Shown here in pieces: positions 52,010 to 52,929 of a stretch of 57,780 bases of DNA. A program made the position numbers and the translations under genes. The notes below the pieces were generated by a model. It ran no database searches. It had not been told where the DNA came from and was given only the letters and a program-made list of their open reading frames with translations. The stretch is from Bacteroidota bacterium (lineage in GTDB: Bacteria > Bacteroidota > Bacteroidia > Bacteroidales > FEN-979): contig QYQJ01000082.1 of NCBI GenBank assembly GCA_007280875.1, forward strand, positions 1 to 57,780. The letters run 5' to 3'. The stretch's first letter is position 1, and the number at the start of each line of letters is the position of its first letter.

Positions 52010-52929
52010 TGCCTGGCCCTTACTTCCTCTAATTCTGTCTCCTCCCAGCCCTGGCCGGTCAGCAGCCACTGCGATCTGAATCCGAGCTCCTTCAGGATCT
52101 CTGTTGCTTCCGGAAAACCTAGGCTGAGTTCTTCGGGACGGTGTGCATCGGAAGATAGAGTTACAGGGATTTTTTGGGTCAGTATTTTTTTCAGGATCCA
52201 GGGGCCCGGGAAAAGGGAATCAGAGCGTTTCTTATAGAGCCCCCGGGTGTTGACCTCCACCACTGCGCCCAGGTGCAGGATCAGATCAAGCGTTTCGTCC
52301 ACCAGGTCGACGTACCAACCTTCGTCTTCCCGGAAATATCGTCCGCGGTTATGCATTTTGATCTTGTCAAGATGGCCGATGATATCGGGTTTCTCCTGCA
52401 CTACCATCTCCTGAAGCTGCCGCCAGTAGGCTGTCACCGCTTTCCGTGCATCCCCCTGGAACACCTCACGCAGCCCCTTGTCGTAGGTCTCCACTTTCGG
52501 GCCGTCGATGAACCAGATCAACCCGGGATGATCATTCCTGATCAGATGTACCGAACCAATGATATAATCAAATGAGTAAGCCTTGCGCAACTCCCTGATC
52601 GATCCCGTCAGGCCGGGAATATAGTCATATTCAAGTCCCAGCAGGATTTTGATCTCCGATCTCCGATCTCCGATCTCCGATTGTTGATTGTTGATTGTTG
52701 ATTTTCGTAATTCTTTGACCCTTGACCCTTGACCCTTGACCCTGGTTATCGCCTCAATGTAACCCGGAAGACCGCTCTCCGGAATGGCAAAAGTATTCGG
52801 AAAGGGCACCGGTGAATGATCGGTGAAACCCAGAACAGAAAATCCCTGGTTAATGGCCTCTGCAATATAGTCTTCGGGAGGGGAGGAGCCGTCGCTGAAA
52901 TGCGTATGGGTATGAAGATTTCCGAGCAT
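52006..52929 (-). CDS. PHP-family histidinol phosphatase
   Basis: N-terminal HTHTHFSDG, GFTDHSP, LLGLEYDY, SDAH. It contains a roughly 30-aa low-complexity insert encoded by heptamer array B. Confidence 0.8.
   Translation of the reverse strand: MLGNLHTHTHFSDGSSPPEDYIAEAINQGFSVLGFTDHSPVPFPNTFAIPESGLPGYIEAITRVKGQGSRVKELRKSTINNQQSEIGDRRSEIKILLGLEYDYIPGLTGSIRELRKAYSFDYIIGSVHLIRNDHPGLIWFIDGPKVETYDKGLREVFQGDARKAVTAYWRQLQEMVVQEKPDIIGHLDKIKMHNRGRYFREDEGWYVDLVDETLDLILHLGAVVEVNTRGLYKKRSDSLFPGPWILKKILTQKIPVTLSSDAHRPEELSLGFPEATEILKELGFRSQWLLTGQGWEETELEEVRARH
52651..52741. repeat. Heptanucleotide tandem array B (13 units in blocks of perfect copies), translated
   Basis: Plus strand: (GATCTCC)x4, (GATTGTT)x3, GATTTTC, GTAATTC, TTTGACC, (CTTGACC)x3 in one unbroken 7-nt register. 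The minus strand encodes RVKGQGSRVKELRKSTINNQQSEIGDRRSEIK. Confidence 0.9.

Follow-up and report, generated by a model that had tools for sequence, protein, structure and literature searches.

The stretch of DNA analysed here, hereafter the window, comprises 57,780 nucleotides (57.8 kb) from an uncultured environmental Bacteroidales and carries four patches of heptanucleotide repeats, three of which lie within 1.75 kb. The features concerned are the following.

14099 to 14145, plus strand: composite patch TTGGCAG TTGACAG TTGGCAG TCGTCTC CCTCACC CTGTCAC, read through in the gene for glutamyl-tRNA synthetase (GluRS)
50303 to 52009, plus strand: gene for a NapH/NapF-like polyferredoxin membrane protein with Fer4 domains (the Fer4 gene), convergent with the PHP gene
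51240 to 51325, plus strand, in sense: array 1, in the linker of the Fer4 gene, with heptamers AGGTTCA/AGGGTCG/AGGGTCA..., then AGAATCG GGGATCG...
52006 to 52929, minus strand: gene for a HisJ-family PHP phosphoesterase of 307 aa, annotated as histidinol-phosphatase (NCBI TSA28023.1), identified by Pfam, TIGR01856 and fold
52651 to 52741, minus strand: array 2, a composite heptanucleotide array of 13 units in one register, identified by direct reading and TRF
52934 to 52987, minus strand: degenerate heptamer patch TTCATCA TTCATTG TTCTTTG TTCGTTA TTCGATT..., upstream of the PHP start

The protein encoded by the host gene of array 2 matches Pfam PF02811 (84.5 bits against a cut-off of 26.4; 1.4e-23) and the HisJ-family profile TIGR01856 (135.1 bits against a cut-off of 90.2). 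Its AlphaFold model, a (beta/alpha)7 PHP barrel, was compared by Foldseek with the histidinol-phosphatase (HisPPase) 2YXO and gave a target-normalised TM of 0.88 (E 2.7e-21), and the conserved metal ligands H6, H8, D13, H38, E100, H128, D261 and H263 are invariant across 32 homologues. The equivalog-level matches to HisJ are below cut-off (NF005996, 93.4 against 133 bits; NF005596, 148 against 202), and inspection of the neighbourhood places the gene outside any his operon; histidinol phosphate is therefore only a putative substrate of this PHP enzyme.

Read on the plus strand from 52651, array 2 consists of four GATCTCC units (52651-52678), three GATTGTT units (52679-52699), a degenerate middle of GATTTTC, GTAATTC and TTTGACC (52700-52720) and three CTTGACC units (52721-52741). 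On the coding (minus) strand, the order is (GGTCAAG)x4-GAATTAC-GAAAATC-(AACAATC)x3-(GGAGATC)x4. TRF reports (GATCTCC)x4.4 at 52651-52681, (GATTGTT)x3.6 at 52679-52703 and (TTGACCC)x4.1 at 52715-52743, all with 100% matches. The PHP open reading frame is uninterrupted across the array, which encodes approximately residues R63-K94 and is translated as ...YIEAITRVKGQGSRVKELRKSTINNQQSEIGDRRSEIKILLGLEYDY...; the predicted read-through peptides at the locus are VKGQGSR, STINNQQSEIGDR and SEIK-ILLGLEYDY. The description given in the earlier note, of thirteen phase-locked heptamers read through by the minus-strand PHP gene, is thus borne out by direct reading, by TRF and by translation of the ORF. Since the unit of 7 nt is not a multiple of 3, each block is read in three frames, the viable step is 21 nt and the peptide has a heptapeptide periodicity. 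A heptad or coiled-coil reading of these heptapeptide repeats was rejected, as the hydrophobic residues are adjacent, with no a/d spacing, and disorder is predicted for this region. On the opposite strand, direct reading of the sequence shows that every frame hits a stop in two of the three blocks. Perfect arrays of at least three copies at periods of 4 to 15 are found in the window at period 7 only, apart from one TTAA run. The lag-7 identity of the PHP loop is 0.79, against about 0.3 at other lags, and we estimate that a run of at least 14 lag-7 matches is expected by chance about 3e-4 times per window (57780 x 0.255^14). The periodicity of array 2 far exceeds this chance expectation.

It could be argued that short-read assembly generated the array or set its number of units, and short-read MAG assemblies do fail at such arrays, with 100-N scaffold gaps lying exactly at the orthologous array in L167 and L168. 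However, the contig was assembled with k=141, more than the length of array 2 (93 nt), and the array is identical in a second assembly (L081, ENA ERZ27245774) that can be told apart from the window by two SNPs, of which one lies at a distance of 30 nt from it. Furthermore, the PHP ORF is open and in frame through the array, three further contigs, one of them from a JGI sample, carry an identical array 1, and homologous arrays occur in many independent MAGs. An assembly artefact is consequently extremely improbable, even if the window's contig and that of L081, at 72,828 and 72,827 nt, could stem from one sample or from closely related ones.

Within the enzyme, array 2 separates helix alpha2 (residues 51-67) from strand beta3 (94-102), and the invariant Glu100 follows it closely. 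The loop from alpha2 to beta3 measures 99 nt in the window, against a basal 36 nt in most of 157 orthologues, and the alignment with T. thermophilus HisPPase 2YXO skips residues 67-85. The AlphaFold model, otherwise confident at 89.7, has a pLDDT below 50 in the insert and places it on the barrel face away from the catalytic metal site. The loop lengths, the alignment around the insert and the low pLDDT sustain the earlier claim that the repeat is an insertion in a loop. The encoded peptide is hydrophilic and predicted to be disordered.

The same site is occupied repeatedly in orthologues. Among the 157 loops, expansion to 45-120 nt is seen in many lineages, and strongly 7-periodic loops are found in about 11 lineages with at least five unrelated unit families, whose units include AATCNNA, ATGCAAA, TCCAATT and CGGCATC. 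Octamer and hairpin inserts are also present at the site in some orthologues, and the insert is absent from the PHP loop of gut and rumen relatives. The possibility that orthologues encode this segment with non-repetitive DNA is not substantiated, because many of them carry their own heptamer arrays at the same spot. In the sister species (75% aa identity), the loop reads GCTCAAG GTTCAAG GCTCAGG ... TCGAAAA TCGAAAA, in the same order as in array 2. Because this sister version is shorter, degenerate and colinear, the perfect blocks can be considered younger than the array itself, which upholds the proposal that they expanded recently.

The earlier note further proposed that gain or loss of one unit would shift the frame of the enzyme and that the array has the geometry of a contingency switch. 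The first proposition is corroborated by simulation, in which a change of +/-1 unit in any of the three blocks of array 2 leads to a stop at aa 101-104; the second fared less well. In a contingency locus, slipped-strand gain or loss of single units would turn the PHP enzyme ON in some members of the population and OFF in others. Such a role would be consistent with a unit length not divisible by 3 and with single-unit changes that stop the protein before the series of metal ligands beginning with Glu100. Slippage of heptamer units does occur on the time-scale of populations, as sister-species assemblies differ by a clean one-unit 7-nt indel in an intergenic patch. Contigs and scaffolds are interrupted at heptamer arrays, and in-ORF heptanucleotide contingency tracts exist in H. 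influenzae (Power 2009, PMC2651432). Nevertheless, the perfect blocks of array 2 comprise only 4.4, 3.6 and 4.1 units, against 8-38 perfect units in the H. influenzae heptamer tracts (8-14 or more in those inside ORFs), which lie in surface and uptake genes with frameshifted alleles among strains (PMC2651432), whereas the present host is a cytoplasmic metabolic enzyme and not a surface, uptake or restriction-modification gene. The array lies one third into the gene, and similar arrays are found in GluRS, alpha-2-macroglobulin and polyferredoxin. None of the 157 orthologous loops is out of frame, all lengths being multiples of 3, and we estimate the chance of observing no OFF state among the ~13 strongly periodic loops at about 0.005 if one third were OFF. 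In L007, the open reading of the loop array is kept in only 3.9% of unit-order permutations, which, like the stops found on the opposite strand of array 2, speaks for translation through such arrays.

Length variation within species points in the same direction. In the P0020 species-level cluster, the orthologous array varies by 0, +3 or +6 units only, giving alleles of 291, 298 and 305 aa (steps of 3 units, 7 aa) that are 98-100% identical outside the array; no frameshifted allele occurs among its 30 or more contigs, and a second cluster shows alleles of 306 and 299 aa. The truncated products P0124, P0125 (185 aa) and P0126 (90 aa) were considered as OFF alleles and rejected, since the DNA shows gaps or contig ends, P0126 and P0124 in sample ERZ1426638 being two contig ends. 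Sister-species assemblies also seem to differ by ~155 nt in length upstream of AspRS, but this was dismissed as a scaffold N-run with duplicated flanks. We therefore regard a contingency switch as distinctly unlikely. Regarding the window's own species, array 2 has been seen in only one or two possibly non-independent assemblies, and the in-frame record described here is that of its orthologues; in a metagenome contig scan for conspecifics, the best identity was 68%. The contigs L082 and L083, which come from other samples, both end at base 52523, 128 nt short of array 2; such ends, together with the assembler breaks at the orthologous array, could conceal heterogeneity, including unassembled out-of-frame variants.

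Arrays 1 and 2 also raise the question of a role for the nucleic acid itself, as a G-quadruplex (G4) or a site for an RNA- or DNA-binding protein that would modulate PHP and Fer4 expression, the peptide being incidental. Both arrays contain four G3 tracts separated by short loops, GGGTCAAGGGTCAAGGGTCAAGGG at 52719-52742 on the minus strand and GGGTCGAGGGTCAAGGGTCAAGGG at 51277-51300 on the plus strand. On the mRNA-sense strand, (GGGTCAA)x4 has the form of a canonical G3N4 motif. The window contains three motifs of this kind where 0.26 would be expected, two of them contributed by the two arrays, and the ViennaRNA minimum-free-energy structures of both mRNAs (PHP and Fer4) include a predicted G4. 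GGGNATC heptamers, moreover, prefer four units and form G4 in vitro (Rehm 2015, PMC4692102). The predicted gain is small, however (-26.0 against -24.9 kcal/mol), shuffled sequences match the array in ordinary RNA folding (z = -0.72), and the G-rich sense orientation is forced in any case by stop avoidance. Unit sequence is not conserved at the PHP loop across orthologues, and most orthologous loop arrays (AATCNNA, ATGCAAA, TCCAATT, CGGCATC) are devoid of G-tracts, so that G4 is not a general property and was rejected as a general rationale. Taking into account the position of many related arrays close to start codons, discussed below, we consider a nucleic-acid role unlikely.

It can also be asked whether the encoded peptide is itself functional, as a flexible linker, interaction site or localisation tag selected at the protein level. 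Motifs of the (N/D)R(K/R)SEI type before beta3 do recur in the window, the sister species, L007 and L039, but this recurrence is explained by a shared GAAATCG-type unit. The three-frame reading of every block means that the peptide is dictated by the DNA; in addition, the 0-28 extra aa are free to vary in length and sequence among close relatives, gut and rumen relatives lack the insert, and model confidence is low in this region. A selected function of the peptide is thus very unlikely, and it is probably a neutral by-product of the repeat.

The other patches of the window occupy comparable positions. Array 1 fills the non-conserved linker of the Fer4 gene after the CSNGAIG motif; it is colinear with array 2 minus the AACAATC block, and the two form a 29-nt, 93% inverted repeat, 1.4 kb apart. 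Array 1 is absent from the Fer4 gene of the sister species, and it may have originated by templated copying. The shared GGCGATA flank was considered as imported PHP sequence and discarded: the Fer4 genes of relatives already read G(G/C)GATN at that position, and it is therefore at most a microhomology. An inversion between the two inverted arrays would fuse halves of unrelated genes, and nothing supports it. The degenerate patch at 52934-52987 fills the 45-nt spacer from the stop codon of a U32 peptidase gene to the PHP start codon; this spacer is missing in the sister species and holds perfect arrays in other relatives. The patch in the glutamyl-tRNA synthetase corresponds to residues ~370-385, between the catalytic and anticodon-binding domains.

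At the level of the clade, the loci of relatives (1.39 Mb) contain 49 perfect period-7 arrays of at least three copies, against 0-1 at periods 5, 6 and 9-13, and 55 degenerate heptamer arrays are found in 2.09 Mb of Bacteroidales MAG loci, with about none at other periods except 8. These arrays share a vocabulary of recurring units (AAATCGT, AATTCGT, ACTGCCA, GGATGC, AACCTG, TCGTCCC). About half of them overlap long ORFs, although several of these precede the true start of the gene. Alpha-2-macroglobulins are among the real proteins with an internal array, and many arrays are located just upstream of start codons. About a quarter (27%, against 10% for random positions) end at most 15 nt from a start codon, which would fit a regulatory role and echoes the translational regulation by heptamer repeats proposed by MacGregor 2015 (PMC4679880).

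To our knowledge, published heptanucleotide repeats are almost all intergenic and constitute the least understood over-represented class of bacterial SSRs. The resemblance to the STRRs of heterocystous cyanobacteria holds in that both show tandem 7-nt units in short arrays, many dispersed copies and a small, genome-specific vocabulary. The array 2 units GGTCAAG, AACAATC and GGAGATC are not known among the cyanobacterial STRR families and differ from TAACTGA, of which no array was seen in the window. The present repeats also differ from STRRs in phylum and in being translated inside a conserved enzyme, at a loop repeatedly occupied in orthologues, whereas STRRs are mainly intergenic in the account cited within PMC4692102. 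The earlier suggestion that such arrays were undescribed in coding regions of Bacteroidota requires qualification: heptamer arrays have already been reported in five Bacteroidetes (MacGregor 2015, PMC4679880), although these are mostly intergenic, with one within purC. The repeats of that study, from Beggiatoaceae, cyanobacteria and Bacteroidetes, are similar to ours in their mixed heptamer assemblages, often just before start codons, in their occasional ORF read-through in the stop-free orientation only, and in the breaking of assemblies at arrays (PMC4679880). They differ in that the published in-ORF cases are at protein termini or in hypothetical proteins, while array 2 lies mid-protein in a conserved enzyme, is without TAACTGA and belongs to an evolving series of orthologous arrays; the host lineage is an uncultured environmental one, as against Flexibacter, Gramella, Aequorivita, Elizabethkingia and Paludibacter (PMC4679880).

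With the GGGNATC repeats of Xanthomonas and Nostoc (Rehm 2015, PMC4692102), the present arrays share a G3-tract heptamer, typically four units, dispersal and G4 potential. However, GGGNATC is under-represented on the coding strand in ORFs (PMC4692102), whereas here the G-rich strand is the coding one in two ORFs, the unit GGGTCAA is not of the GGGNATC type, and most sister arrays are without G-tracts. The heptanucleotide SSRs of H. influenzae are found in the hmw1A/hmw2A promoters and, as AACAACC and AATTTTG, inside ORFs (PMC2651432); the latter resemble array 2 in having in-ORF 7-nt units of which a single-unit change shifts the frame. Finally, array 2 resembles coding microsatellites in permissive loops, a general phenomenon, as a disordered, hydrophilic, length-polymorphic surface insert that probably evolved by slippage, the usual loop microsatellites being mostly made of 3n-nt units and this one of 7-nt units.

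We consider it likely that array 2 is a tolerated, slippage-prone, STRR-like repeat of a clade-wide class, kept in frame by selection. It would be the local case of the heptanucleotide repeats of uncultured environmental Bacteroidales, located at the one place in the PHP barrel where additional residues would be tolerated, the link from alpha2 to beta3 on the face opposite the catalytic metal site. Arrays may grow, shrink and turn over by replication slippage and point mutation of units, followed by re-amplification, which would produce perfect blocks in one register. As the PHP gene is needed, selection would remove variants that break the frame or introduce stops, and the survivors would be limited to the stop-free orientation and to arrays whose net change in length is a whole number of 3-unit steps (21 nt, 7 aa). 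Replication slippage is the generating process that we infer; in its simple form, it does not explain the dominance of 7 nt or the presence of the same composite array in two genes. It can be hypothesised, as a rather unlikely alternative, that heptamer arrays are actively dispersed composite cassettes copied between loci, repeatedly colonising start-codon-proximal leaders and the permissive loops or linkers of essential proteins. The observations behind this hypothesis concern array 1: its colinearity with the PHP-loop array, its absence from the sister species and the GGCGATA microhomology that it adjoins. If true, cassettes would represent a way of evolving protein loops, and perhaps of regulating genes, that has not been described before; they would create length variation in heptapeptide steps, and their multi-block design would allow frame-compensating changes.

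On a practical level, arrays of the tolerated, in-frame class to which we assign array 2 break short-read assemblies, and the resulting gene fragments can be mistaken for frameshifted or phase-variable alleles. More broadly, the locus offers an orthologous series in which one loop of one conserved enzyme can be followed in dozens of uncultured Bacteroidales. In this series, the birth, homogenisation, unit turnover and 3-unit polymorphism of heptamer arrays, and possibly their copying to a neighbour gene, can be traced under a frame and stop filter, so that read-level or long-read data could be used to address how fast and by what mechanism they change.

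The heptanucleotide array of the PHP gene (array 2, 52651-52741) is composed of 13 units in a single register, which can be read directly as follows:

52651-52678: GATCTCC, four copies
52679-52699: GATTGTT, three copies
52700-52720: degenerate units GATTTTC, GTAATTC and TTTGACC
52721-52741: CTTGACC, three copies

The minus-strand ORF 52006..52929 (307 aa) translates these units without a break as ...YIEAITRVKGQGSRVKELRKSTINNQQSEIGDRRSEIKILLGLEYDY..., which confirms the translated array described in the earlier note. Among periods 4 to 15, only period 7 forms perfect arrays of at least three copies in the 57.8-kb window, besides one TTAA run, and the DNA of the loop matches itself at lag 7 with an identity of 0.79. 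Array 2 is unchanged in a second assembly (L081). Over 6.9 kb, two SNPs set this assembly apart from the window, one of them synonymous and 30 nt off the array; the two contigs measure 72,828 and 72,827 nt and possibly derive from non-independent samples. Two further loci (L082 and L083, from the ENA ERZ27245777 and JGI 3300013092 samples) are 100% identical to the window (50889/50944-52523) and both end at 52523, 128 nt short of array 2; this shared end may reflect a graph break due to the array, or strain heterogeneity.

The host protein (GenBank TSA28023.1, from a Bacteroidetes MAG and annotated "histidinol-phosphatase HisJ family protein") contains a PHP domain (Pfam, 1.4e-23) and scores 135 bits against the HisJ-family profile TIGR01856, above its cut-off of 90; for the HisJ equivalog models it stays below the cut-offs. 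AlphaFold models it confidently (mean pLDDT 89.7), and the model matches solved histidinol-phosphate phosphatases, with a target-normalised TM of 0.88 for 2YXO. The sole low-confidence stretch, residues ~68-93 (pLDDT 44-49), falls between helix alpha2 (51-67) and strand beta3 (94-102), and the alignment of the T. thermophilus enzyme skips residues 67-85. The loop measures 99 nt in the window against a basal 36 nt in most homologues, a net gain of 21 aa, and the proposed insertion in a loop is thereby borne out. A (beta/alpha) barrel has its catalytic side at the C-terminal strand ends and its alpha-to-beta connections on the other face. Since the metal ligand Glu100 is at the far end of beta3, the model places the insert in a structurally permissive site of the barrel.

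Read directly on the + strand, which is antisense to the PHP gene, tandem copies of CTTGACC and of GATTGTT contain TGA, so that three or more units put a stop into all frames and an ORF is compatible with the observed orientation alone; array 1, in the convergent polyferredoxin (Fer4) gene, is likewise in sense orientation. In the relative L007, the units AATCTGA and AATCGTA hold potential TGA or TAA stops that the observed order avoids in frame, as only 3.9% of the permutations of unit order do, which argues that the arrays would be translated and not bypassed.

The PHP loop was surveyed in 157 orthologous loci. It is fixed at 36 nt (AQLKEEFKDKID) in the gut/rumen clade and measures 45-120 nt in environmental clades, with strongly 7-periodic loops in ~11 lineages, drawn from at least five unit families. 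Repeats and other elements of the loop include:

L007: AATCNNA, 14 copies
L039: ATCGGAA, four copies
L004 and L006: AGTCNGC / CGGCATC, four copies
L005 and L061: TCCAATT, four copies
L035 and L040: ATGCAAA, four copies
L041: ATCCCGC
L059: CCAAATG / CCAGGTG
L001:3808-3900, L002:10184-10270, L085/L086:6184-6270 and L046:10184-10303: in-frame GC-rich hairpin/palindromic elements replacing heptamers

The hairpin elements of L001, L002 and L085 are translated as PPSLPLKGRSKSPSGDLG, that of L046 is a 51-nt duplication with a palindrome (fold z of -2.85 and -9.05 for such elements), and a comparable in-frame GC-rich element occupies the Fer4 linker of L025. REP/MITE-like elements are therefore also translated through the PHP loop, and the loop of L057 holds an octamer array as a non-heptamer repeat. 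In the sister species (P0001, 75% identity; L164-166), the array is shorter, degenerate and colinear (GCTCAAG GTTCAAG GCTCAGG GGAATCA ACAAAAA TCGAAAA TCGAAAA), indicating that it predates the species split and that the perfect blocks of the window are later homogenisations or expansions. The earlier note would have been refuted by orthologues encoding the segment in non-repetitive DNA; this is not the case, the insert being repeat-derived across the clade.

The frameshift geometry was rightly recognised: in simulation, one unit gained or lost in any block leads to a stop at residue 101-104. The contingency switch read from this geometry is not supported, as its population signature is absent. 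Loop length is a multiple of three in 157/157 loci, and the species-level cluster P0020 (the L007 lineage) has full-length alleles of 291, 298 and 305 aa, which correspond to 0, +3 and +6 units and share 98-100% identity in the rest of the protein; this population evidence comes from orthologous arrays, the window's own species being represented by one or two assemblies. Another cluster comprises 306-aa and 299-aa forms. Such length variation is absent from an insert-less cluster, whose 16 members all measure 285-286 aa except one 171-aa fragment. Three short products were considered as frameshifted alleles and rejected: metagenome scaffolds L167 (1242-1341) and L168 (1368-1467) have 100-N gaps exactly at the loop array, giving spurious 185-aa "proteins" in protein databases, and the remainder was traced to two contig ends within one sample. 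Scaffold gaps at arrays are thus a pitfall when phase-variable genes are screened via split ORFs. Known heptamer contingency tracts inside ORFs are made of 8-14 units, belong to surface or uptake genes and have frameshifted alleles (Power 2009, PMC2651432), whereas the PHP blocks comprise 3-4 units each, in a gene for a cytoplasmic enzyme. That unit number is polymorphic is seen directly in the sister species, in which a clean one-unit (AACTGCC) indel distinguishes L164:6947 from L165:6940, in an unconstrained intergenic heptamer patch flanked by a hydrolase gene and a STAS gene, the assemblies being otherwise 99.93% identical over 17 kb. Taken with the in-frame alleles, this means that units slip, yet all outcomes seen inside the gene preserve the frame.

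The comparison set consisted of 80 relatives' genome loci, all from uncultured Bacteroidales/Prolixibacteraceae-like MAGs at ≤71% identity. Their 1.39 Mb contain 49 perfect arrays at period 7, 30 at period 4, 17 at period 8 and 0-1 at periods 5, 6 and 9-13; under a degenerate criterion there are 55 heptamer arrays in 2.09 Mb, nearly all in the environmental clade. Octanucleotide arrays are a second abundant class (17 perfect and 23 degenerate in the relatives' loci), exemplified by CACCATTT x6 in a PHP loop (L057:10175-10243) and, within a gene for an alpha-2-macroglobulin (L164:~2790-2830), by units of the CCATCTCA type. Units shared by the heptamer arrays of several MAGs are AAATCGT, AATTCGT, ACTGCCA, GGATGC, AACCTG and TCGTCCC. 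Real proteins, among them alpha-2-macroglobulins, contain some of the heptamer arrays internally (L002:2954-2999 and 4697-4744; L008:3344-3383; L025:156-193), one directly after the bait-region domain and others between MG domains. Many lie immediately 5' of likely start codons (genes for AspRS, U32 peptidase, YCII and isochorismate synthase), and an array end lies within 15 nt of an ATG opening a long ORF in 27% of cases vs 10% for random positions. Several relatives (L013:9979-10002, L018:9959-9997, L045:9961-10001, L073:9965-9989) have perfect arrays of ATTCGTA, TATTCAA and ACCATTA that end only a few nt from the PHP start codon, at the same spot as a degenerate patch of the window; the sister species is devoid of any spacer between U32 and PHP. 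The clade arrays follow the pattern that MacGregor 2015 (PMC4679880) reported for TAACTGA and further heptamers, and agree with heptameric SSRs at large (Rehm 2015, PMC4692102).

The window holds three heptamer patches besides array 2:

51240-51325, +: array 1, sense orientation, within the convergent neighbouring NapH/NapF-like polyferredoxin gene
52934-52987: degenerate patch filling the 45-nt spacer from the U32 peptidase stop codon to the PHP start codon
14099-14145, +: small composite patch in the GluRS gene (12989..14542), translated at residues ~370-385

The GluRS patch (TTGGCAG TTGACAG TTGGCAG TCGTCTC CCTCACC CTGTCAC) lies between the catalytic and anticodon-binding domains, and its units match the clade vocabulary (ACTGCCA and CGTCACC types). 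Arrays 1 and 2 and the spacer patch cluster within 1.75 kb of the 57.8-kb window (chance p ~ 0.003, a rough estimate). A 21-nt tandem repeat (17497-17590, ~4.3 copies, 81-85% matches), devoid of 7-nt periodicity of its own, encodes a 7-aa repeat in the minus-strand ORF 17115..17672 (185 aa, no Pfam hit).

Arrays 1 and 2 form a 29-nt inverted repeat (93%; 51269-51297 vs 52715-52743), 1.4 kb apart and spanning the 3' ends of the two convergent genes. Recombination between them would exchange halves of the two genes; signs of an inversion were absent. Their coding strands are colinear, [GGGTCAA]n-AAGAAT-[ATCGGRG]n-ATCAAA, with a score of 51 vs a shuffle maximum of 25 for the first half and 0/1000 shuffles matching the second, and array 1 lacks the central AACAATC block. 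GGGTCAA dimers are present only in these two arrays, with none in ~2 Mb of relatives' loci, and the sister species' Fer4 linker carries 39 nt of unrelated sequence with no array, vs 105 nt in the window. In another relative, L017, an independent 7-periodic insert occupies the Fer4 linker. GGCGATA precedes both arrays; relatives' Fer4 genes have G(G/C)GATN there, making it a pre-existing microhomology. From the sequence comparison, we infer that array 1 probably arose as a copy of the PHP-loop array in an older state, with template switching as a conceivable route; growth of array 1 in situ is the other possibility. Two of the three canonical G3N1-7 motifs of the window (0.26 expected) are (GGGTCAA)x4 and its Fer4 counterpart; both lie on the mRNA-sense strand, their predicted gain in energy is small, and they resemble GGGNATC repeats (Rehm 2015, PMC4692102); the third is at 9351-9380 (-), GGGAGAGAAAGGGAAAGCGGGGACTCAGGG. 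We treat this predicted G-quadruplex potential as incidental, because most orthologous loop arrays are devoid of G-tracts and stop avoidance already fixes orientation.

Heptamer SSR classes are already known, including in a few Bacteroidetes, and the novelty claimed for Bacteroidota does not extend to them. In the literature searched, no description was found of a series that is translated in mid-protein, recurs in orthologues and varies in length, as in these conserved enzymes of uncultured Bacteroidales, or of the possible copied composite cassette. It seems quite probable that array 2 is STRR-like, prone to slippage and tolerated by the permissive loop in which it lies; selection would remove frame breaks and stops from it, and its evolution would proceed in 21-nt steps.
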